NCBI RefSeq assembly: GCF_003018235.1
Contig: NZ_CP027437.1
Reading direction: 5' to 3' (one strand)
Length of the DNA: 64,000 nt
DNA from: Escherichia coli
GTDB lineage: Bacteria > Pseudomonadota > Gammaproteobacteria > Enterobacterales > Enterobacteriaceae
Part shown: piece by piece, positions 6,947 through 32,934 of the stretch
Position numbering within the stretch: position 1 is the stretch's first letter
Layout of the letters: each line of letters starts with the position of its first letter
Translations under genes and position numbers: made by a program
Notes under the pieces: model-generated
Seen by the model: the letters and a program-made list of their open reading frames with translations, nothing else
Databases searched by the model: none
What the model was told of the DNA's origin: nothing

Positions 6947-9784
6947 TTATTCAAAATAACGTTCAAAGTTATAAGCACTTTGTAATGAGGCCCGCTTACC
7001 CTTTTTAGCTAGATCTATACCACCACTTCTTAAACCCTCATCAAAACTTCCGAGCACATCATAAAAATGTGACATTTCATGAATCAAAGTTATGACTTGT
7101 GAATCACGACCGTCCAGGGGATCGTCAATAAATTTATTTCCAAGATAAATGGTATGGGTATAATCTCCATCATTAACTCTTCCATGAACATTAACATCCA
7201 TAAATTCAAAATTTTGGTACTTAATCCCCTCATTAATTTCAATTTCTTTTTTTACAGCGTTTAAAATTTTATTCCTGGCTGCCTCATCATCAACACCGAA
7301 TATATTTCCAAAACGCTCTTTATCGTTATCATTCCAACGAATCAACTCATCTCTTGCTGATTTTAATTTTTTACGCTGCGCTTCAAGAACAAGTTTCATA
7401 TCATTTTCACTGATCCTTTTCTCCTCTATCATTTCATAAACAGGATTTCCATAATTATCTGTAAGAGGTTTTCCATTATATCCAATTATAGCTACTCCAT
7501 TACCCGGCCCTGATGTAGAAAAATCTCTAATTGTATTAATTTTATATTTACCATTTGCGTCACTACCGCCAGGATTCAGTGCCAAGTGAGTAGGTCCATC
7601 AAGGATGATAGTGCCGTCTGAATTCATCACGAGAGTGCTGCTTCCCACAGTCAACGTAATGTTCGTTGCCGCAGTCAAATGAATGGCACCAGATTTTGAT
7701 GTGATGGTAATATCCCCTTCGACAGTCTCCGTGCAGGTTCCCGTTTCTACCGTCACTTCGCGTTTACCCGTTTTCACCGTCAGAGACTGGTCACCTTCTG
7801 TCACAGTAATATCCCGGTTGCCTTTGATGGTTTCGGTGTGCTTACCCTCAACAAATTCTGTGCGATCGATTTTTACCGTAGATGTTTCGTTATGAATGAT
7901 GGTTTTCGTCCGATCTGCCTTTACCGTGTGTGTTTCGTTATTTTTCACGACGGTATTCAGATCTTTCTCCGCAAGAAACCTCACTTCTTCCGCACCTGTT
8001 TTATCGTCAAAGCGCAGCATGTTTCCGTTGGTCGGCCCGCCATACAGCGAGTGGCTGAATATCCCGCTCTGCGACGCCATGCCCGGCAATCCCCACGGCG
8101 GCATGGTGTCCTGGTTATAGGTGCGCCCTACAATGATCGGTAAATCCGGGTCGCCGTTTTTGAAATCCACCAGCACTTCCTGGCCGATGCGCGGGATCTG
8201 GATCATCCCGAATCCTTTCCCCGCCCACGGGTAGCTGACGCGGATCCAGCAGGAGCTGTTTTCGTCATTCTTTCCGTAACGGTCCCAGCCAAACTGGACC
8301 TTCACCCGGCCATATTTATCCGTCCAGATTTCCTGCCCCGCAGGGCCGGTGACGATGGCGCTCTGCGGGCCTTTGGTGTGGGGTTTGCTCAGGGTTCGCT
8401 GTGGGCGGTAAACTTCGCTGGTGGGATGCAGTTCAAACGTGGTGACATAGGTAAAATGCTGCTCCTGACCGCTGTGCTGCGCATTATCCCGTAAAAACAG
8501 CGTGGTCTGTACCAGTAGGTATTCCTGGTTGACCTCTGCCGTTGGATGATTCATCAGCGTAAAGGTGTAACCCGTCATGAGGGTGCGGATATGACCTGCC
8601 CCATGTGCCCGGCTGCCGGGGCTGCGCTGCGCTTCCATACGAATGCGCGTCAGCATCTCGCCTTCGCCCGTAGTGAAGTAATCACCAGGCCATTCATAAT
8701 GCTCGTATTCAGCATGACCGGTATCACGCGGACTAGCCACGGTACTTTTAAGCAGCGAACGAGGCTTCATAAAATCAAAATCGTCCATCACCCACTTTCC
8801 AGTACGTAGCCTCTCACTGGCCGTAATGGTGTGGATAAATTCCTTGTCCAGTTTCAGACCTTCCTGGTGCCACTCCACCAGTGGCGAGTCAGGGCACGCT
8901 TTATGACCATTGATGGCATCCGCCAGCACCAGCGTATGGCTGTTCTCGCTGTGCTCAAACCACCAGTAAATTCCCCACTCCTGCATCAGGCGCTGGATGA
9001 AATCAAAATCCGTTTCACCGTACTGTACCTGCCAGGCACGAGGTGGATAATTTTCCACCAGCCGTTTTTCCACCGGAAAGGAATATTCATCCAGTACTTC
9101 ATCGAGAATATCCACCACGGTTTTATTCTGGAACGCCTTGTAGTCGCTGGTATGGGTCAGCAGCTTCAGCCATGGCTCAATGCGTAATTCATACGTTACC
9201 GAACGGCCCTCATGGCCGACCACCCGCGCTGCCGTCACCAGCCCGCTGATATACCGTTTTTCGCCACCGTCCAGTTCAATACTGACGCACAGGTCTTTGC
9301 CCACCATGGGCTGAAGCGGCAGGTTGGCAGCGGGAGAAACGTAACCCAGGTTCAGGATGTCCGGCGTTTTAAGCTGTACTGTGTAGGAAAACAGATTCCC
9401 AAGTCCTTCCGAACCATTCATGCCTGCAAACAAAAGCAACTGCGGCGGCACCGCGCTACCACTTACTGTGACGTTATGCGCCCCCGGACCACCGGCTGCA
9501 AGCGACGACGCCGCATCCTGAACTGTACCAGCCATATCCGAGATCCCTACTGCAGCAGCGGCAGCCTGCGCAGCAGTTACTGCAGCTTTAACCAGACCTG
9601 ACGGTTCCGGCAACGCACCAAACAGGTCCGCCGCGGCCTGTTCTGCCATCTCCTCGGCGGCACCAGATACATCGGTTACGGCTGAACTGGCGCTTACAGC
9701 ACTACTTTCTCCGGCTATCGGTGGCGTGGAGATAGCTGGCCCACCGTTACTGCCAGATTTATTACTCGTAGATACAAAACTCAT
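6947..9784 (-). CDS. vgrG: Evolved VgrG spike protein, 945 aa. It has an Ala/Ser-rich N-terminal extension and a C-terminal aspzincin-like (M35-like) zinc metallopeptidase domain.
   Basis: gp27/gp5-like core ([12 protein letters not shown]..., beta-helix repeats [25 protein letters not shown]...). The last roughly 207 aa are AT-rich and contain TLIHEMSHF (HExxH at nt 7067-7081). An Asp lies 9 residues after the second His (GSFDEGL), which is the aspzincin spacing. SD AAGGAA lies before the ATG at 9784. Confidence 0.9.
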
Positions 9785-9808
9785 GATATTTATTCCTTTA
9801 ATATCGGA

Positions 9809-10180
9809 TTAGAATTTAGCGCCCGGCGGCCAGAAAAAATAAGAAATAACCCGCCACTGTCCATCTTTATAATGAAAAAAACATGTCAGATTTAAATCCC
9901 CCCGCAAATGCCAAAACATTTCTTTGATGGGAATATTTCTGAATTTAGGATTTGTTGAGCGATAGGTGTTTTCAATTTCTATATAATACTCACCGACAAA
10001 TTTATAACGAGGATTTATAAATTCATACGCTGGCTGACCATAGTTATTTAATAGAACATTCTCTTCAACTCCATTATACACACCACTCGCATTCAGATAA
10101 GCATGCCCAGGAATATCAGACATGCTATTTTTCGCCCCACCCACTATCAAAAAAATTACCACAGCGTATATTAGTTTCAT
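9809..10180 (-). CDS. Secreted (signal-peptide) small protein, 123 aa. Putative periplasmic immunity for the upstream HELGH metallopeptidase.
   Basis: N-terminus MKLIYAVVIFLIVGGAKN is a classical signal sequence. Its start overlaps the upstream stop as ATGA (10177-10180). AT-rich. Confidence 0.6.
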   Translation of the reverse strand: MKLIYAVVIFLIVGGAKNSMSDIPGHAYLNASGVYNGVEENVLLNNYGQPAYEFINPRYKFVGEYYIEIENTYRSTNPKFRNIPIKEMFWHLRGDLNLTCFFHYKDGQWRVISYFFWPPGAKF

Positions 10181-20223: not shown

Positions 20224-20709
20224 TTAAATTTCTTTGTTAGCTTTGAAATCGTAACCTGCCGTGATAGTGCCGCCGCTGCCGCCCTGCTGGTTCTGCACCA
20301 CGTATTCCTGCTTCACGGTGCTGAAAGAGAGTTCGACTGACTCACGAGAAGCTATTTCTCCCCCCTGACTCCCGCTGGGCGAAACCATTGCTACGATCAA
20401 ATCAGTAAAACTGTATTTGAGGTATTCCAGTGGGTTGCCGCCTGCTTTGCGCATGGTCAGCACGGCTTTCGGAATGTGTTTGCCGGAGGCGCAGTATTTG
20501 AACAGGTTCGGGCTGGCGCGATCGATATAGTGTTCAAATGAAAGATTAGTTACGGATACCTTGCCGGATCCCAGACCGCTACCCGCGTGCATGGTGGACT
20601 CCTGGTGGATATTCCAGCGCCAGCTCAACACCTCAATTTCATTTTTATGTTTGTCATCCATTGACTCGCCGTCAATGCCGTCAATTTTCAGAAAAATATC
20701 ATAAGACAT
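20224..20709 (-). CDS. hcp: Hcp tube protein, 161 aa
   Basis: MSYDIFLKIDGIDGES... is a canonical Hcp N-terminus, and the size fits. Confidence 0.95.
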   Translation of the reverse strand: MSYDIFLKIDGIDGESMDDKHKNEIEVLSWRWNIHQESTMHAGSGLGSGKVSVTNLSFEHYIDRASPNLFKYCASGKHIPKAVLTMRKAGGNPLEYLKYSFTDLIVAMVSPSGSQGGEIASRESVELSFSTVKQEYVVQNQQGGSGGTITAGYDFKANKEI

Positions 20710-20820: not shown

Positions 20821-21192
20821 TCATTTCTTAACACTCCTGGAAATCAACTCATCCAATTCATTTCCATGAATGAAATCTATACATTTCATAGTACTGAAGT
20901 CTGATGCTATAGAACCATCATATTTTAATGATGCATATTTTCTCGCTATCGCATCTATTTCACGAAAAATTTCTACAGGTTGCTGACCATATTCAAGATA
21001 AGCACTAGCTGTAGCTCTGGCATCATCCTGAACGACATCATTTTTATACACCAATGACAAACAATGACTCAAAGCCCAATTGCGTAAGAGCTCTGACTGA
21101 GAATATTTTTCAGTCAATGCTTCCTGAGCATAAGATAATTGACATATCTGTAGCCCACAGAGGCCCCAAAATATTAATTTCAGCCATTTCAT
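20821..21192 (-). CDS. tai4: Tai4 immunity protein, 123 aa from the ATG at 21192
   Basis: Signal peptide MKWLKLIFWGLCGLQICQLSYA. ATGA overlap with the tae4 stop. Confidence 0.75.
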   Translation of the reverse strand: MKWLKLIFWGLCGLQICQLSYAQEALTEKYSQSELLRNWALSHCLSLVYKNDVVQDDARATASAYLEYGQQPVEIFREIDAIARKYASLKYDGSIASDFSTMKCIDFIHGNELDELISRSVKK

Positions 21193-21674
21193 GGTAGTAC
21201 CCACAGGATTCCGACTTCAGGAACAAATGTTCCATTATCTGGATCATTTAGTAGATGGCATTGATCTGAACAAACGCTACCATTCCATAATGTTACATGT
21301 CCCCGAGCATTGCTCCAGCCATGGCCTTTTACAACAATGATGCCTTTTTTACCTGTAAAGTCACCAGGAGTTGGATTATTAATGACAAGATCTGGCTTCC
21401 CCATAATCTGGGTCAGATGTTCAATCATATCATTCACACGATAAATATAAAATTTCTTATCAGAACCACTAACCGTTGCATAGGGAGAACTACGGGATAT
21501 CGGAAATCCCGTAGCATTCAAAACATAACTCATACGAATTGGACAAGCATTTTCAAAATAGCCACCTGAAATATTTTGCCCAACATTTCCGCCAATTATA
21601 AGACCGACATCAGCAACGGGAAAATTCACTTTTCCAAATGCCGACCATGCCTCATTAAATGAAGGTCTACCCAT
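21189..21674 (-). CDS. tae4: Tae4 family T6SS peptidoglycan amidase effector, 161 aa
   Basis: Closely resembles the remembered Salmonella/Enterobacter Tae4 sequence (RPSFNEAW...NACPIRMSYVLN...GHGWSNARGHVTLWNG...CHLLNDPDNG). The catalytic Cys (ACPIRM) and His (GHVTLW) contexts are present. Confidence 0.88.
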   Translation of the reverse strand: MGRPSFNEAWSAFGKVNFPVADVGLIIGGNVGQNISGGYFENACPIRMSYVLNATGFPISRSSPYATVSGSDKKFYIYRVNDMIEHLTQIMGKPDLVINNPTPGDFTGKKGIIVVKGHGWSNARGHVTLWNGSVCSDQCHLLNDPDNGTFVPEVGILWVLP

Positions 21675-21726: not shown

Positions 21727-23241
21727 TCAGGTATTACCCTGTTTTACCGACGGCAGTTTTGTGACCAGACGCAGTGATCCTGTTAACCCTTCAAGCTGAA
21801 AATGCGGGCGCAGGAAGAATTTGGCATCGTAATAATCCGGATTACCTTCCACCTCTTCCACCACCACTTCAGCAGCTGCCAGTGGGCGACGAGCTTTGGT
21901 TTCCTGTGAGGAGTTCACCGGATCGGCATCGACGTAGTTCATGATCCACTCATTGAGCCAGCGCTGCATATCTTCACGCTCTTTGAACGAGCCGATCTTG
22001 TCGCGCACGATACATTTGAGGAAGTGCGCAAACCGTGAACAGGCGAAAAGATATGGCAAACGAGCTGAGAGATTGGCGTTGGCCGTAGCGTCCGGATCGT
22101 AATACTCCTGCGGTTTTTGTAGAGACTGAGCGCCAATAAAGGCGGCGTAATCAGAGTTTTTGCGGTGGATAAGTGGGATAAAACCATTTTTCGCCAGTTC
22201 AGCTTCACGACGGTCAGAGATGGCAATTTCTGTCGGGCATTTCATATCCACGCCGCCGTCATCGGTCGGGAAGGTATGACAGGGCAGATTTTCCACCGCG
22301 CCACCAGATTCAACACCGCGGATCAACGTACACCAACCGTAATGTTTGAAAGAGCGGTTGATATTTACACCCATTGCATAGGCGGCATTGCTCCAGACAT
22401 ATTTGCTGTGATCTGCGCCATCCGCATCTTCTTCAAAATCAAACTCATCGACAGGGTTTGTTTTCGCACCATAAGGCAAACGGGAGAGAAAACGTGGCAT
22501 CGTCAGGCCAATGTAGCGAGAATCCTCACTTTTTCGCAGCGAGTTCCACGGTGCGTATTCGAGGTTTTGGGTCACAATTTTGGTCAGATCACGCGGGTTA
22601 GCCAGTTCCTGCCAGGAGTCCATCTGCAACACTGACGGAGAGGCCCCAGCAATAAACGGCGCATGGGCTGAGGCTGCCACTTTGGCAATGGAGCCGAGCA
22701 GATCCACATCCGGTGGCGTGTGATCAAAATAATAATCCGCAATGATACAACCGTAAGGTTCTCCGCCTAACTGTCCATATTCAGCTTCATAAAGCTTTTT
22801 GAACATGGGGCTTTGATCCCAGGCGATCCCTTTGTAACGCTTCATATTTTTCCGCAATTCATCCTTTGAAAGATTCATAAAACGGATTTTTAATTTTTCA
22901 TCGGTTTCAGTGTTGTAAACCAAATGTTCCATCCCACGCCAGGAGGACTCCAGTTTCTGAAATTCCGGATGACTCAGGATTAGTTTGATCTGCTCAGTTA
23001 ATTTGAAATCGATCTGCTCAATAATCGCAGCAATACTTTTATAAGCGTCGTCACTGACGGTGACGGTATTTGTCAAAGCCTGTTGGGCCAGCGTCTGAAC
23101 TGCTGCCTCAACAGCCTTTGCTGCCTGAGGTGTCTTGGGACGGAAGGCTTTATCCAGGAGCGAATCAAATTCAGTGTCCTGATAGGCAGTGGTTTGCGCA
23201 GCAGAGAGTTCGCCAGTCGCCAGAAGAGTATCGTTTACCAT
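21727..23241 (-). CDS. tssC: TssC sheath large subunit, 504 aa
   Basis: Size, position after tssB, and conserved VipB-like sequence. Confidence 0.95.
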   Translation of the reverse strand: MVNDTLLATGELSAAQTTAYQDTEFDSLLDKAFRPKTPQAAKAVEAAVQTLAQQALTNTVTVSDDAYKSIAAIIEQIDFKLTEQIKLILSHPEFQKLESSWRGMEHLVYNTETDEKLKIRFMNLSKDELRKNMKRYKGIAWDQSPMFKKLYEAEYGQLGGEPYGCIIADYYFDHTPPDVDLLGSIAKVAASAHAPFIAGASPSVLQMDSWQELANPRDLTKIVTQNLEYAPWNSLRKSEDSRYIGLTMPRFLSRLPYGAKTNPVDEFDFEEDADGADHSKYVWSNAAYAMGVNINRSFKHYGWCTLIRGVESGGAVENLPCHTFPTDDGGVDMKCPTEIAISDRREAELAKNGFIPLIHRKNSDYAAFIGAQSLQKPQEYYDPDATANANLSARLPYLFACSRFAHFLKCIVRDKIGSFKEREDMQRWLNEWIMNYVDADPVNSSQETKARRPLAAAEVVVEEVEGNPDYYDAKFFLRPHFQLEGLTGSLRLVTKLPSVKQGNT

Positions 23242-23265: not shown

Positions 23266-23811
23266 TTAGTCTGCTGTTCCCGTTTCACCTGATAAGACAC
23301 TTTCCTGTTGAGCGACAGGTTTTGGCGCACTAGCCAGAGCTTTCAGTAACGTAGGGTCTTGTAATAGTTTGTTGATAAGATTTTCTGCTCCCGCTTTACC
23401 ATCCATGTAGGTTTGTAGGTTGGCAAGCTGAGTACGCGCTTCCAGCAGCTGGTTCAGGGCATCCACCTTACGGGCAATCTGCGCAGGCGAAAAATCGTCC
23501 ATATTCTCTAACGTGATATCGACCATTAACTGCCCTTCGCCCGTCAGCGTATTGGGGACAGCAAACGCCACGCGCGGCGCAATGGCTTTCATCCTCTCGT
23601 TGAAGTTATCGATATCAATATCAAGGAATTTACGATCGGTGACCGGCGGCAGCTCTTCACGCGGTTTACCCGCCAGGTCGGCCAGCACCGCCATGACAAA
23701 CGGCAGTTCGATTTTTTTCTCGGAGCCGTAAATCTCAACGTCATACTCAATCTGCACGCGGGGCGCGCGGTTGCGGGCAATAAACTTCTGCGCGCTGTTG
23801 TTGATAGCCAT
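23266..23811 (-). CDS. tssB: TssB sheath small subunit, 181 aa
   Basis: The RAPRVQIEYDVEIYG motif is typical of TssB/VipA. Confidence 0.95.
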   Translation of the reverse strand: MAINNSAQKFIARNRAPRVQIEYDVEIYGSEKKIELPFVMAVLADLAGKPREELPPVTDRKFLDIDIDNFNERMKAIAPRVAFAVPNTLTGEGQLMVDITLENMDDFSPAQIARKVDALNQLLEARTQLANLQTYMDGKAGAENLINKLLQDPTLLKALASAPKPVAQQESVLSGETGTAD

Positions 23812-23872: not shown

Positions 23873-24163
23873 TTAAAAATCATACGCAGAGAGTATTTTT
23901 ATAATCTCTTTGTTTTCTTTGTACTTTTCCCGAAGCACAGGGAGTGATTTCTTCGCCGGAGGACACCAGGTATCAACCCCCTTTTCGATGTCTCTTTTAT
24001 CCTTCTTTGGTAAAGAACTGTCCCATTCACCAGCAAGATGCTGGCACATTTCCGCATTACTCAGAAAATGCTGCACATCCTGTGGTAAAGGCGGTTCCCC
24101 CTGAACACAGAAAGCGAACATCATTAACAGGAATGTCAACAACATCGGATAACGAAATGTCAT
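23873..24163 (-). CDS. Secreted 96-aa Cys-containing protein. Putative periplasmic immunity for the upstream M15-like peptidase.
   Basis: Signal peptide MTFRYPMLLTFLLMMFAFCVQG. Its start lies 2 nt after the upstream stop. Confidence 0.55.
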   Translation of the reverse strand: MTFRYPMLLTFLLMMFAFCVQGEPPLPQDVQHFLSNAEMCQHLAGEWDSSLPKKDKRDIEKGVDTWCPPAKKSLPVLREKYKENKEIIKILSAYDF

Positions 24164-24165
24164 AC

Positions 24166-24729
24166 TTAATGTCCATCAATTGACCAGTGAGGTATATCTG
24201 TATTGCCGCCAACAAATTTTCTGACGCCGTAACCCAGACCTACCGCCTGAAGCTGGGCATTCATTCCGGTTCGAGGTAGTGTATTAATTGCAACATTCTG
24301 ACCATTGCTCCCCGCAATTGTTAATGTTCCGCTCCAACTGATATTCATATCTATCGCAGTACCGCGTGTATGGTTGGAGCTCAGTGCAGGCGCGACATTC
24401 AGATTATTCATACCATAGGCCGTAACCATAGCCTGCGCCGCTTCAAGCGAGGCTTGCTCAGTCGGGTGAACCCACTCAATATCCATCCCCTCCATCGCCG
24501 GGACGTTTTTTGCCTGAACGATTTCATGAGCAATCAACCATGACCAGTGCATGAGATATGCTCTGGCGGGAGGGCGATATGTTGCAGAGATACTGACCCT
24601 TGCACGCGCATTACCAAGCGCGCGCAAAAAATTATCTACCGATGCACGAAAAGTCCCCTGCAAATCATTAGTGGAAGAACTTCCAGGAAAGCGACTGACC
24701 CACAGTGCGCCACTTAATTCTTTTGCCAT
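24166..24729 (-). CDS. Putative T6SS effector: LAS/M15-type (VanY-like) zinc peptidoglycan peptidase, 187 aa
   Basis: SxHxxGxAxD motif SNHTRGTAID at nt 24349-24378 (H-x6-D zinc ligands), plus a distal DIPHW His. No signal peptide. Sits 12 nt downstream of clpV, inside the T6SS operon. Confidence 0.65.
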   Translation of the reverse strand: MAKELSGALWVSRFPGSSSTNDLQGTFRASVDNFLRALGNARARVSISATYRPPARAYLMHWSWLIAHEIVQAKNVPAMEGMDIEWVHPTEQASLEAAQAMVTAYGMNNLNVAPALSSNHTRGTAIDMNISWSGTLTIAGSNGQNVAINTLPRTGMNAQLQAVGLGYGVRKFVGGNTDIPHWSIDGH

Positions 24730-24741
24730 AAGGATGCTCCA

Positions 24742-26223
24742 TTAATCCGTTTCAAAAATAATCTGTTCATCCTCATCAACACGAATGCGGATTTGCGTGA
24801 TGGCCGTTTTCTCTGTCATCGCCTGCAACCAATAACGGGACAGTTGTGGGAGGATATGTTGTTCGATATAGCCGATGAGCAAACGAGCGCCGGTTTCGTG
24901 CATCGGGCAGCGCGACACAATATGCGTAATCAGTTCATCGCCATACACCAGTGAAACGCCATGCTGCTCCGCCATCCGATCCATCAATCTGCCAAGATGC
25001 AGGCGGGCAATAACACCACGCGCGGTCTCATCCAGCGGTAAATAAGGAATAACCGTCACACGCCCCAGGAAAGCCGCCGGGAAGTGTTTACGTAACTCCG
25101 GCATTAACGCCTCTTTTAGTCCTGCCGAATCAGGCATCAGCGCCGGATCCTTTTCGATATGGCGTTTGTACTCGCTCCAAGTGGTTGCGCCGATGGTGCG
25201 CAGGGTGCCACGCGCCAGCGCCGGTTTCAGCAGGTTGGCAGCATCCCCCGTACCGGATGTACCACCAGCGCCCACCAGCGTGTGAACTTCATCAACAAAA
25301 AGGATTACCGGCTGCGGCGAGCGCGCGGCCTCTTCTAGCAACGCTTTCAGGCGGGATTCAAATTCACCCTTCATGGACGCCCCAGCCAGCAGCGCTCCAA
25401 CATCCAGTGACAGCAACCGCACGTTACGCAGTGAAGGCGGTACTTCCCCCCCGGCAATCGCCAGCGCGAATCCTTCCACCACTGCCGTTTTCCCGACTCC
25501 CGCTTCGCCGGTCAGTAGCGGGTTGTTCTGGCGACGGCGCAGCAGAATATCCGTCATAGTACGGATCTCGTGTTCGCGACCGGTGACCGGATCGATATTG
25601 CCTTCACGGGCCAGCGCAGTCATGTCCTGGCAGTATTTCGCCAGCGCGGATTTGCTTCCGGTTGATTCGCCGGCAAAGACCTGGCTAGCTTCCCCCGGTA
25701 CTGCAGAATTTAAATCCGAGCCGTCATAAGGCATTTCTGTTAATTCAGGAGATGAAGTGATTAAAGACGGAAGAATATCTAATAGTTCATCTACCGGTAG
25801 CTCTGCCAATGGCGCACAAATATTTTTTAACACCCGACACAATTCTGGCGTGGTTAACCAGGCAAGTAATAACCATCCACTACGAATTTTTTTATCGCCA
25901 AAGCGGATACTTGCCAACATCCAGGCTTTTTCAACAGAAAGATCGATATGATGGGAAAAATCGTTAATTACACTCGCTCCGGCAGGCAATATATTCAATT
26001 GCTGAATTAACGCCTTCTCAACATCAGCAGATGTTATTTGATAATGTCGAAGCACATTGTGAATGTCATTCTCTGGTTGTTGTATTAACTGATGCAACCA
26101 ATGCGTCAGTTCGACATAAGGATTAGCGCGTAATTTACAGAACGTCGTCGCAGATTCCAAAGATCTAAACAAAGATTTGGTTAGCTTTCCATACAGTGCA
26201 CTGCGCGAAACAGGAGTGTCCAT
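24742..26223 (-). CDS. clpV: ClpV AAA+ sheath-recycling ATPase carrying an apparent large in-frame internal deletion (493 aa instead of roughly 850-900)
   Basis: ClpV N-domain, then D1 Walker A GEAGVGKT and Walker B ILFVDEVH. At ...IEKDPAL|[26 protein letters not shown]... (junction about nt 25135-25145) the sequence jumps into the C-terminal small domain. There is no second Walker A. Confidence 0.8.
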
Positions 26224-28793: not shown

Positions 28794-30677
28794 ATGGATC
28801 CACGGCTACTGGAATACTACAACCGCGAACTGAGCTATCTGCGGGAAACGGGAGCCGAATTTGCCGCCCGTCATCCTAAAGTCGCCGCCCGACTGGGTAT
28901 GCAGGGAACGGATATTGCCGATCCGTATGTGGAGCGAATGGTCGAGGCCTTCAGCTTCCTGACCGCCCGCACGCAGCTAAAAATTGACGCTGAATTCCCC
29001 CGTTTCACCCAGCGTCTGCTGGAAGTGGTCAGCCCCAATTACGTCACACCCACGCCCTCAATGAGCGTGGCGCAGCTTCATCCCGATCCGGAAGAAGGCG
29101 ATCTGGCGAAGGGATTCACCGTCCCGCGCAACACGGCCTTTTTTTCCGCCATTCCGGAAGGCGAAAGTACCGCCTGCCAGTTTCGTAGCAGCCAGAATGT
29201 GACGCTGTGGCCACTTGCCATCGAAGAGGTGCGGCTGACCGCCGCGCCGCCGGATATGCCTGCCCTGCACCGCTACCTGCCAGCCAACATTCACGTCGCT
29301 GGTGCGCTGCGTATTACCCTGCGCACCTTTGGTGAACTGACGTTCAGTCAGCTTGCAGGGCTGAACAAGCTGCCATTTTATCTCTGCGGCGAGGAGCGCA
29401 CGGCCTCACACCTGTTCGAACTACTGCATACCAGCGCCATCGCGAGCCTGGCTGGCATTCCGGGGCATTTTGACGGCGCACTGGATGTGAATCTGAAACA
29501 GCCCGTTATGTACGAAGGCCTGGATCCGGATCAGGGACTGTTGCCGCTGGCGTGGAATGTGTTTCACGGCCATAACCTGCTACATGAATATTTTACCTGT
29601 CCGGAACGCTTCTTTTTTTTCACCCCGACAGGCCTGTCTGCCGGGTTACAGAAAATTAACGGCGGCGTGGCGGAGATTGTTATCCTGCTGAACCGCCTGC
29701 CGCCGGACTGGCTGATCCACCAGACAAACGCGGCACAGTTCAGCCTGTTCTGTACCCCAGTTATCAACCTGTTTCCCCGCGTCGCCGCCCGGATCGATGT
29801 CACGCACAGCACGACGGAACAGCATCTGGTGGTGGACAGAACCCATCCGCTGGATTATGAGGTGTTCTCGGTCCAGGAAGTGGAAGGGCTGGAAACTGAC
29901 ACCACACGGAAGATGGCCTTTCGCCCGCTCTACCACACCCGCAATAATGATGAAGGCAATCACGGACGTTATTTTTCCCTGCGCCGGGAGCCGCGCCGGT
30001 TGTCGGAAAATGCCCGCCGCTATGGCACCCGCACCTCCTATACAGGATCAGAAGTGTTCCTGTCGCTGGTTGACCAGTATGAAGCGCCGTACCCGGAAAA
30101 TCTGCGCCATATCACCATCACGGCTATGGTCACCAACCGCGATCTGCCCTGTCTTATTGCCCGCAATGGACGGGACGATCTGACCGTGGATGCGGCCATC
30201 CCGGTGGCGGGCGTGGGGCTTATCCGTCCGCCGCGTCCGCCGCAGCCTCCGCTGGCTGAACGTGAAATGGCCTGGCGGTTGATCCGCCAGTTATCCTTTA
30301 ACTATCTGCCGCTGGCCGATCTGGATCACCGTACCGGTGGTCAGGCGCTGCGCGATCTGCTTAACCTGTTTATTCCGGCGCATGACAGTCCGCAGTCGCG
30401 CCAGGTGCGCAGCCTGATTGGCTGCAACACCACCCCGGTCACCCGCCGTCTGCCCGGTTCCGGGCTGCTGGTCTATGGGCGCGGCGTCAGTTGTGAACTG
30501 ACCGTGGATGAGGAGGGGTTCTCCGGTATCAGTCCGTATCTGTTCGGTCTGGTGTTGGAGCACTATATCGCCCGTCATGTTTCCATTAATACCTTCTCGC
30601 AGATGACGCTGCACAGCATGCAGCGCGGCAAAATTATGACCTGGCCTGCCAGGGCGGGACAGCGGGGAAGCGTATGA
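28794..30677 (+). CDS. tssF: TssF baseplate protein, 627 aa
   Basis: N-terminus MDPRLLEYYNRELSYLRETGAEFAARHPKVA is canonical TssF. Confidence 0.95.
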   Translation: MDPRLLEYYNRELSYLRETGAEFAARHPKVAARLGMQGTDIADPYVERMVEAFSFLTARTQLKIDAEFPRFTQRLLEVVSPNYVTPTPSMSVAQLHPDPEEGDLAKGFTVPRNTAFFSAIPEGESTACQFRSSQNVTLWPLAIEEVRLTAAPPDMPALHRYLPANIHVAGALRITLRTFGELTFSQLAGLNKLPFYLCGEERTASHLFELLHTSAIASLAGIPGHFDGALDVNLKQPVMYEGLDPDQGLLPLAWNVFHGHNLLHEYFTCPERFFFFTPTGLSAGLQKINGGVAEIVILLNRLPPDWLIHQTNAAQFSLFCTPVINLFPRVAARIDVTHSTTEQHLVVDRTHPLDYEVFSVQEVEGLETDTTRKMAFRPLYHTRNNDEGNHGRYFSLRREPRRLSENARRYGTRTSYTGSEVFLSLVDQYEAPYPENLRHITITAMVTNRDLPCLIARNGRDDLTVDAAIPVAGVGLIRPPRPPQPPLAEREMAWRLIRQLSFNYLPLADLDHRTGGQALRDLLNLFIPAHDSPQSRQVRSLIGCNTTPVTRRLPGSGLLVYGRGVSCELTVDEEGFSGISPYLFGLVLEHYIARHVSINTFSQMTLHSMQRGKIMTWPARAGQRGSV

Positions 30678-32857: not shown

Positions 32858-32934
32858 TGGCGGAACGGACGGGACTCGAACCCGCGACCCCCTGCGTGAC
32901 AGGCAGGTATTCTAACCGACTGAACTACCGCTCC
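32858..32934 (-). tRNA. aspV: tRNA-Asp (GUC), 77 nt including CCA
   Basis: The reverse complement reads GGAGCGGTAGTTCAGTCGGTTAGAATACCTGCCTGTCACGCAGGGGGTCGCGGGTTCGAGTCCCGTCCGTTCCGCCA. Adjacent to dnaQ, as in K-12. Confidence 0.97.

Follow-up and report, generated by a model that had tools for sequence, protein, structure and literature searches.

A putative type VI secretion effector/immunity pair with a predicted LAS-type zinc peptidase between clpV and tssB in Escherichia coli

Blondel and colleagues reported in 2023 (PMC10469887) that in 18 of 60 Salmonella SPI-6 clusters for a type VI secretion system (T6SS), the interval between tssH (also known as clpV) and tssB holds two genes: an unannotated open reading frame (ORF) of 32 amino acids, described as an "L-Ala, D-Glu endopeptidase," and a gene for a protein with a signal peptide. 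A later study followed this module in Chilean isolates. Here we describe the same two genes at the same tssH-tssB locus in a strain of E. coli, in a stretch of 64,000 nucleotides from contig NZ_CP027437.1 (the whole stretch that we analyzed, hereafter the window). In the window, the first gene is full-length and encodes a protein of 187 amino acids; in contrast, the ORF published for this module of Salmonella, SPI-6 VR1, is the relic of a 465-nt in-frame deletion. The second gene encodes a protein of 96 amino acids that is 82% identical to the Salmonella protein (the published length of 146 amino acids appears to be an over-extended call, as the homology covers 96 amino acids). On comparative evidence alone, we consider it quite likely that the first gene encodes a toxin delivered by the T6SS, a zinc peptidase with the LAS fold, and that the second encodes a periplasmic protein that confers immunity to it. 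This is a known kind of system: the locus was already noticed in Salmonella and the family is widespread. An earlier note on this DNA had presented the cassette as new, which was an overstatement given that the same junction is listed in Salmonella, but its remark that the SPI-6 prototype has no cassette at this junction fits that list, which has no S. Typhimurium among its 18 strains (PMC10469887).

Several other described systems are related to this one. TagX, from Acinetobacter, Burkholderia, and Ralstonia, shares the fold of the LAS/VanY superfamily, has catalytic residues like those of Ply500, and is encoded within the T6SS cluster; but TagX is anchored in the membrane by two transmembrane segments, acts on the wall of the cell that produces it, is conserved in the clusters, and lacks an immunity partner (PMC5061870). 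In contrast, the protein from the window is soluble and dispensable, is paired with a protein that is predicted to be periplasmic, and has relatives that are fused to PAAR. The characterized Tae1-4/Tai1-4 and Tlde1/Tldi1 pairs, whose effectors are small cargo proteins that target peptidoglycan, share the logic of a small effector without a signal peptide, a tightly coupled gene for periplasmic immunity, and a location within an SPI-6-type cluster. However, the Tae proteins are papain-like amidases with a Cys-His dyad and Tlde1 has the L,D-transpeptidase fold (PMC12994826), whereas the 187-residue protein has a predicted zinc-dependent LAS fold and, with no cysteine at all, lacks the Tae dyad; Pfam's Tae4 family matches only a neighboring gene (21189-21674). 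The WHIX effectors (PMC12135965) and Tpe14 and Tpe18 of A. baumannii (PMC6833914) include predicted M15-like, MepA-like, or M23 T6SS toxin domains, which belong to the LAS superfamily and are proposed to target the wall, with signal-peptide immunity proteins encoded next to them. Those domains pass the curated M15, M23, or CDD models and are carried by WHIX, by LysM, or by linkage to VgrG, while the family from the window passes no curated model and is found with PAAR proteins, in the neighborhood of vgrG, or as stand-alone cargo. Finally, the best structural matches of the 187-residue protein are Ply500, LysB4, and the T5 enzyme (L-alanoyl-D-glutamate peptidases) along with VanY and LdcB, which have the same order of catalytic residues (H-x6-D, then D/E-x-x-H).

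A search of open-access papers turned up none in which this effector family is named or tested. A machine-learning preprint from 2026 (T6EC11/12/17) and a preprint on T6SS1 of Shiga toxin-producing E. coli proved to concern other proteins and another type of cluster, and the main text of a 2026 survey of Salmonella effectors in PLoS Biology includes no LAS, M15, or VanY family.

The cassette, its flanking genes, and the features that we rely on are as follows (all are on the minus strand).

24742-26223, minus strand: clpV (tssH), 493 amino acids, with its stop codon at 24742-24744
24730-24741, minus strand: spacer of 12 nt between clpV and the effector gene, TGGAGCATCCTT, with a GGAG ribosome-binding site
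24166-24729, minus strand: candidate effector ORF, 187 amino acids, ATG start 12 nt after clpV
24574-24576, minus strand: R52, within the invariant block RPP-x-RAYLMHW; candidate substrate- or transition-state-binding arginine
24349-24378, minus strand: SNHTRGTAID, residues 118-127, the SxHxxGxAxD motif; H120 and D127 are predicted zinc ligands
24169-24198, minus strand: DIPHWSIDGH, residues 178-187, with the predicted catalytic base D178 and the predicted third zinc ligand H181 (D/E-x-x-H)
23873-24163, minus strand: candidate immunity ORF, 96 amino acids, ATG start 2 nt past the stop of the 187-residue ORF
24098-24163, minus strand: signal peptide of the 96-residue protein by a sequence heuristic, MTFRYPMLLTFLLMMFAFCVQG, residues 1-22
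23963-24046, minus strand: segment from C40 (24044-24046) to C67 (23963-23965), with E46 between them; predicted disulfide joining helix 1 to helix 2
23266-23811, minus strand: tssB (small subunit of the sheath), Pfam T6SS_VipA at E = 6e-58 and TIGR03358; the downstream flank of the cassette

The 187-residue protein and its family

The coordinates bear out the tight packing that the earlier note had described, both for the 187-residue ORF behind clpV (24166-24729, against a stop codon at 24742-24744) and for the 2-nt gap that couples it to the next ORF (23873-24163). The protein has a mass of 20.1 kDa, a pI of 8.2, and no cysteines. It was said to lack a signal peptide, and a Kyte-Doolittle scan agrees: there is no hydrophobic N-terminus or hydrophobic segment, and the highest mean over 19 residues is just 0.57.

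SNHTRGTAID lies at exactly the positions where it was first noticed, and its signature residues are S118, H120, G123, A125, and D127. To judge conservation we used an alignment of 28 homologues (50-97% identity) and a set of 78 multidomain relatives, and H120 and D127 of the signature are conserved in both; the motif is more than a product of chance. R52, H120, D178, W182, and S183 are invariant among the 28 homologues, and D127 and H181 (the distal histidine that had also been singled out) are at least 90% conserved. The 78 multidomain relatives all share the counterparts of R52, D127, D178, and H181, and at least 90% of them share that of H120. The residues come in the order of the LAS enzymes: R52, then H120-x6-D127, and then D178-x2-H181. 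The catalytic roles that we predict for D178 and H181 are by likeness to Ply500 and TagX (PMC5061870). As to R52, it is a candidate for the role of a particular arginine of another group. VanX-type enzymes carry a conserved arginine, and it is from this residue that the role of R52 is proposed.

None of the curated M15 profiles passed its threshold. The earlier note had called for such a comparison. The one Pfam alignment is to Peptidase_M15_4, in the motif region, over residues 117-132 only and with 14.7 bits (E = 0.048) against a cut-off of 25. This indicates a divergent LAS clade and not a member of Pfam's M15 family. Similarly, the NCBIfam model for DdpX (PRK10178) aligns to residues 101-130 only, with 14.3 bits against a cut-off of 176 (E = 0.024). 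When the 28 members were scanned with Pfam, VanY matched 7 of them (best E = 0.002) and M15_4 matched 4 (best E = 0.048). A profile of the family, compared to all PDB sequences, found no LAS enzyme, and so sequence gave no residue-by-residue alignment to Ply500 or VanX.

The predicted structure is more informative. An AlphaFold2 model built from the 28-sequence alignment has a mean pLDDT of 94.1, and when it was compared to the PDB with Foldseek, the first 19 matches were all LAS/M15 proteins (Ply500, LysB4, LdcB, VanY, VanX, VanXYc, LysECD7, and ChiX). The structure-comparison figures listed are 7.4 for VanYB, 7.3 for Ply500, 7.1 for LysB4, 6.6 for LdcB, 6.4 for VanXYc, 6.2 for VanX, 5.7 for Sonic hedgehog, 5.0 for the T5 endolysin, and 4.3 for MepA. 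Thus, the model has the Hedgehog/DD-peptidase fold that characterizes the LAS superfamily (Pfam clan Peptidase_MD). Given these matches and the conserved arginine, H-x6-D, and D-x-x-H, the protein is most likely a divergent LAS/M15-like zinc peptidase domain, as the earlier note had argued from the motif.

An exhaustive profile search (E up to 0.001, clustered at 50% identity) found at least 1133 cluster representatives for the effector family. In all 150 matches listed, the LAS domain is at the extreme C-terminus, and the lengths of these proteins range from 182 to 1317 amino acids. Among the 78 long members, the N-terminal partners include PG_binding_1 (7 proteins), PG_binding_3 (5), eCIS_core (4), PAAR (3), SH3_3 (3), GH19-like (2), Amidase_2, SLT, and VanY. 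Single loci join SLT to the LAS domain in a cyanobacterium, a pesticin-type lysozyme to the LAS domain in a planctomycete, and a GH19-like domain to the LAS domain in two others. These fusions to murein-binding and murein-hydrolase domains support peptidoglycan as the likely substrate.

In Paenibacillus, Singulisphaera, and Isosphaeraceae, a Sec signal peptide lies directly before the LAS domain, so the enzyme would act in the wall compartment there. Neither the protein from the window nor any of 27 homologues has a signal peptide or transmembrane segment by our heuristic, and the proteobacterial versions lack a signal; proteobacteria would therefore need another route to the same compartment. 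The four relatives with eCIS_core suggest that extracellular contractile injection systems take up this toxin domain as well. NCBI names the 187-residue protein "peptidoglycan-binding domain-containing protein", but this stand-alone form shows no PG_binding domain. The name looks misleading for it and was likely propagated from the long proteins with N-terminal PG_binding fusions.

The 96-residue partner and the loss of the toxin

The 96-residue protein had been described as secreted, and its N-terminus makes a signal peptide plausible: R4 is positively charged, residues 7-18 form a hydrophobic core, and VQG|E is a plausible cleavage site. The earlier note had miscounted its cysteines, with three beyond the signal peptide. 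There are three in total, of which C19 is within the signal peptide (it aligns with the lipobox cysteine of homologues from Enterobacter and Intestinirhabdus), which leaves two, C40 and C67.

To see how widely the partner accompanies the effector, we read 80 loci, with one genome per species. In 35 of them, which span the Enterobacterales, Oxalobacteraceae, Pseudomonas, and Xanthomonadales (both Gamma- and Betaproteobacteria), a homologous gene of about 100 codons lies immediately downstream of the effector gene. The spacing is -14 to +17 nt in 34 loci, and L068 has a longer overlap. By our heuristic, a signal peptide is present in every downstream partner and a lipobox in many of them. The residues C40, E46, C67, L77, and Y81 are invariant. 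When the partner alone was used as the query, relatives turned up only in Escherichia, Salmonella, and Citrobacter; the wider set came from reading the loci. A profile search for the partner found at least 786 clusters (at 90% identity). Pfam assigned no family to 35 partner relatives and reported coiled-coil noise; we dismissed matches of the 96-residue protein to StoA/ResA (28.6 bits against a cut-off of 210) as noise as well.

The AlphaFold2 model of the 96-residue protein has a pLDDT of 86 overall and of 90-96 over residues 31-96. It has helices at residues 28-46, 53-80, and 85-91; C40 lies on the first helix and C67 on the second. The mature protein would be a small helical domain of about 74 amino acids. 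The model suggests a hairpin stapled by a C40-C67 disulfide, which would be typical of a periplasmic protein. When this model was used for a fold search, nothing came up but generic helical hairpins (best E = 0.7), and no solved structure resembles it. In Ralstonia and some other Burkholderiales (loci L009-L016, L008, and L045), a different protein of about 174-190 amino acids, with a lipoprotein signal or signal peptide and no Pfam match, is encoded starting within 50 nt of the effector's stop codon and takes the place of the family of about 100 residues; the Ralstonia version is a lipoprotein of about 189 amino acids. Presumably, this is an alternative immunity protein.

In E. coli and Salmonella, the toxin gene is repeatedly damaged. 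Of the 5426 complete E. coli genomes, 117 have this type of T6SS, and at least 80% of the cassette region is found in 107 of those. The common effector alleles of E. coli keep D127 (576, 359, and 41 contigs). In a minor lineage (P0001, P0172, and P0176-P0180), a predicted zinc ligand is replaced (D127N), and P0172 has H181Y in addition. At first, the cluster representative P0001 gave the impression that D127N was a common allele of E. coli, which we rejected because the contig counts show a minor lineage. The D127N alleles keep the length of the ORF and hence would be annotated as intact. The analogous change of Asp to Asn in TagX, D287N, served as the point-mutant control in a muropeptide assay (PMC5061870).

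Other lesions are more drastic. In E. coli 06-00048 (CP015229), the effector gene is frameshifted and the immunity ORF is annotated as intact. This is the closest complete genome; its tssL is interrupted by an internal stop (L001 5179-6495), and it looks as if its T6SS has also decayed, by lesions other than those in the window. E. coli 6EVA has a 67-residue in-frame remnant, due to a deletion between two HWS motifs (…RAYLMHW|SIDGH), and keeps the immunity gene (L088 1966-2169). E. coli A20 has a clean and empty clpV-tssB junction of 101 nt (L087 1613-1713), which implies that the cassette is dispensable. In Salmonella (L005/L006 5900-5998), the 32-residue ORF consists of the first 11 and last 21 codons of the 187-residue gene, MPKELSGAQWV|YGVTKFVGGNTDKPHWSIDGH, and an intact immunity gene follows. 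Another Salmonella contig (L091 5001-5564) is 98-99% identical on both flanks and keeps the intact 187-residue gene; the difference is the 465-nt in-frame deletion. Of the five catalytic residues, the relic is missing three (R52, H120, and D127); it therefore cannot work as an enzyme and is no functional effector. In S. enterica subsp. salamae (L002-L004; about 4002-4454 in L002), the immunity homologue is intact beside a tssB fragment of 28-38 amino acids and the rest of the cluster is gone. This gene is near an autotransporter gene and an outer membrane protein gene, and its 140-residue call is an N-terminal over-extension of the 96-residue protein.

Decay of the toxin and orphaned immunity genes are thus seen as a frameshift, as relics of 67 and 32 residues, as D127N and H181Y, and in salamae. 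An effector/immunity pair would be expected to lose its toxin and keep the partner in this manner, and a factor for assembling the secretion system would not behave in this way.

Linkage to type VI secretion

In each of the 80 loci, we looked for T6SS genes up to 10 kb away from the effector gene. With core proteins of the E. coli T6SS as tblastn queries, we found them in 13 loci. The main association, which is with PAAR, became visible only after we built a hidden Markov model for PAAR from the loci themselves: 28 of the 80 loci contain a PAAR ORF, and in 26 of these it ends at the LAS gene or is fused to it. In two loci from the Rhodanobacteraceae (L032 and L047), PAAR, a linker, and the LAS domain form a single ORF of 337 or 332 amino acids. 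In three Pseudomonas loci, vgrG is the gene directly upstream, and an Rhs gene lies on the downstream side. The effector gene is inside T6SS clusters in Escherichia, in Salmonella, and in one betaproteobacterium. On plasmid PRA1 of Rahnella aquatilis HX2, the LAS domain forms the C-terminal 175 residues of a 1162-residue protein that is encoded between vgrG and tssM. This protein (L090 5043-8531) has no Pfam domain and a large N-terminal carrier region, and three small unannotated ORFs follow it. Altogether, at least 34 of the 80 loci are linked to T6SS genes. Many of the remaining loci are stand-alone two-gene modules, a form that is common among cargo effectors. A homologue on a rhizobial plasmid has no annotated T6SS neighbors.

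The PAAR proteins of the Burkholderiales are about 200 amino acids long and have a conserved C-terminal extension (…YDLFFHV…ITLDDG…PYYD…) that ends in a Cys-rich tail (PCGC, ACDC, or CCC). The loci with this form that we list are the following.

L017, L018, L029, L043, L061, and L068, at about 9300-10000: PAAR protein of about 200 amino acids, in Burkholderiales and Xanthomonadales

In 5 of the 6 loci that we examined, the PAAR gene overlaps the effector gene by 53-71 nt. The effectors of Oxalobacteraceae and Ralstonia have a conserved N-terminal peptide of about 20 amino acids (MTTAQLTP..TPAVV) which is not present in the enterobacterial form. Because of the overlap and the conserved peptide, we infer PAAR-dependent loading in the Burkholderiales, and the extension and the peptide may be an adaptor-docking pair.

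In the window, the cassette is about 2.5 kb from Tae4/Tai4, which is the other wall-targeting pair that we confirmed there. The genes downstream of tssB are as follows.

21727-23241, minus strand: tssC
21189-21674, minus strand: Tae4 (Pfam Tae4, E = 1.3e-21), a known peptidoglycan amidase effector in the same operon
20821-21204, minus strand: Tai4 (Pfam Tai4, E = 2.1e-19), the immunity partner of Tae4

Beyond Tae4/Tai4, the order is hcp (20224-20709), tssJ, and tssK; every gene of the region is on the minus strand, and the island ends at a tRNA-Asp (32858-32934). This arrangement is SPI-6-like, as annotated in E. coli 06-00048 (CP015229). The gap between the 96-residue ORF and tssB is 61 nt. 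Between 23200 and 26700, promoter-like and terminator-like sites are no more numerous than in shuffled sequence, and the scan is uninformative as to an internal promoter; transcription of clpV, the effector gene, the immunity gene, and tssB as a single unit would be consistent with it. Elsewhere in the window, VgrG (6947-9784, 945 amino acids) has a C-terminal extension (residues 819-944) that scores 28.5 bits against Aspzincin_M35, with a cut-off of 30, and it may be an evolved VgrG with a metallopeptidase domain. ARAGORN reported a tRNA-His of 94 nt (30460-30553) inside the coding region of tssF, which is probably a false positive.

Proposed mechanism and alternative explanations

The earlier note's central proposal was a LAS-type peptidase toxin of the T6SS with a periplasmic immunity protein, and it is supported by the fold, the catalytic residues, the domain fusions, the linkage to PAAR and VgrG, the co-conservation of the partner, and the decay series. 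Linkage of the gene pair to the T6SS is seen in several lineages. The effector has no signal peptide, and the neighboring gene, which runs in the same direction, encodes a protein that has one (by the heuristic).

In the mechanism that we propose, the effector would be made in the cytoplasm and, as it lacks a signal peptide, would be kept from the producer's own cell wall. It would most likely be loaded into the Hcp tube (it has a mass of 20 kDa, and in the Enterobacterales it has no PAAR or VgrG partner). Once delivered into the periplasm of a neighboring cell, H120, D127, and H181 would hold zinc, D178 would act as the general base, and the enzyme would cut a peptide bond in the stem or cross-link of murein, which would weaken the sacculus. 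The fold matches favor neither the L-Ala-D-Glu bond (as for Ply500 and TagX) nor the D-Ala-linked bonds (as for VanY and LdcB) over the other. Sister cells would export the 96-residue protein by Sec, the C40-C67 disulfide would form in the periplasm, and the incoming effector would be bound and blocked. That the invariant E46 plugs the zinc site is speculation.

A more detailed version of this proposal is that the pair defines a new and widespread toxin/immunity system of the T6SS with delivery rules of its own; that an uncurated LAS clade cuts a murein bond (such as L-Ala-D-Glu) that no T6SS effector is known to cut; that in the Burkholderiales, a dedicated PAAR protein of about 200 amino acids docks the MTTAQLTP..TPAVV peptide through its C-terminal extension; that in the Enterobacterales, the effector travels as bare Hcp cargo; and that the disulfide hairpin inserts Glu46 in the zinc site. 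It is doubtful that all of these parts hold together.

Several observations weigh against an effector/immunity pair that is delivered by the T6SS. First, sequence profiles from Pfam and NCBIfam place the 187-residue protein in no curated peptidase family, and zinc binding, enzymatic activity, toxicity, secretion, and neutralization are all properties that we infer. Second, the signal peptide of the partner was judged by eye and by hydrophobicity only. Third, the route in E. coli, through the lumen of Hcp, is a guess from the size of 20 kDa. Fourth, 46 of the 80 loci have no T6SS gene within 10 kb (by the core-protein and PAAR searches), and the family is also present in bacteria without a T6SS. 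This implies that use by the T6SS is specific to some lineages and is not a property of the domain. Fifth, delivery is doubtful in the strain of the window itself because its ClpV lacks the second ATPase domain.

This lesion is an in-frame deletion of 1152 nt (384 codons, nucleotides 1088-2239), which leaves 493 amino acids out of the 877 in CP015229. Nucleotides 1-1087 and 1073-1482 of clpV match nucleotides 1-1087 and 2225-2634 of the CP015229 gene, with an overlap of 15 nt, and the junction is near 25137-25151, between 15-nt repeats. The match to TIGR03345 covers profile positions 1-338 only, and most of the second AAA domain is gone. Either the strain's machinery is impaired, or a repeat was collapsed during assembly. 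We see about an even chance that the cassette is a true effector/immunity module by origin that is disarmed here: clpV would be crippled, the toxin would go undelivered, and the cassette would persist because the immunity protein protects against related attackers. The deletion itself points this way, as does the trend in E. coli and Salmonella of losing the toxin and retaining immunity; none of the 5426 complete E. coli genomes shares the deletion junction. On the other hand, the effector and immunity ORFs are both intact despite the deletion, with all of the catalytic residues kept, and the deletion between repeats could be an artefact of assembly. Also, residual T6SS activity that is independent of ClpV is reported in some species. 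The deletion probably impairs the machinery, and in this strain the pair may mainly amount to retained immunity and a toxin that cannot be delivered.

A second alternative is that the 187-residue protein is no toxin but an accessory like TagX, a LAS endopeptidase that opens the producer's own peptidoglycan for the assembly of the membrane complex. TagX of Acinetobacter is an L,D-endopeptidase of the VanY superfamily that is encoded in the T6SS cluster and is needed for secretion of Hcp (PMC5061870; PMC13584744), and assembly of the T6SS in E. coli needs the murein hydrolase MltE (PMC13584744). The gene in the window is in the core operon, between clpV and tssB, and its product has the same class of fold, with Ply500 among the best structural matches. 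However, TagX has two transmembrane segments and passes pfam13539, while the protein from the window has no hydrophobic segment and reaches 14.7 bits against a cut-off of 25. Furthermore, the gene is absent or broken in clusters that otherwise look complete (CP015229, 6EVA, A20, and many from Salmonella), its conserved partner, which is predicted to be periplasmic, outlives it, and homologues are fused to PAAR. Overall, we consider this role very unlikely.

It is more improbable still that the protein is a cytoplasmic housekeeping enzyme like VanX or DdpX, a D-Ala-D-Ala dipeptidase or carboxypeptidase whose gene is in the island by chance. The lack of a signal peptide, the weak match to PRK10178 (E = 0.024), and the presence of VanX among the fold matches would fit, but that match is at 14.3 bits where 176 are required, and few E. 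coli genomes (at most 117 of 5426) have the gene, always at the clpV-tssB junction of the T6SS. This explanation also does not account for the links to PAAR, VgrG, extracellular contractile injection systems, and murein hydrolases, the Sec signals in Gram-positive relatives, or the predicted periplasmic partner. We give almost no credence to a captured remnant of a prophage endolysin (an L-alanoyl-D-glutamate peptidase): Ply500, LysB4, LysECD7, and the T5 enzyme are among the best structural matches, but tblastn found no homologue in 50,697 phage genomes, no phage genes lie beside the cassette, and the domain's partners are secretion and wall-binding modules.

If the effector/immunity pair is confirmed, then it would be a large addition to the wall-targeting arsenal of the T6SS, with its at least 1133 effector clusters and at least 786 immunity clusters, families for which neither Pfam nor NCBIfam has a curated entry. 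The published "32-aa effector" of Salmonella, which is reported for about 30% of SPI-6 clusters, would then have to be reread as a dead relic beside an orphan immunity gene, and only a minority of strains in E. coli and Salmonella would still have the effector in its active form. The natural sequence of intact, point-inactivated, truncated, immunity-only, and empty sites neatly illustrates the decay of an effector/immunity cassette, and these variants supply ready controls for experiments.

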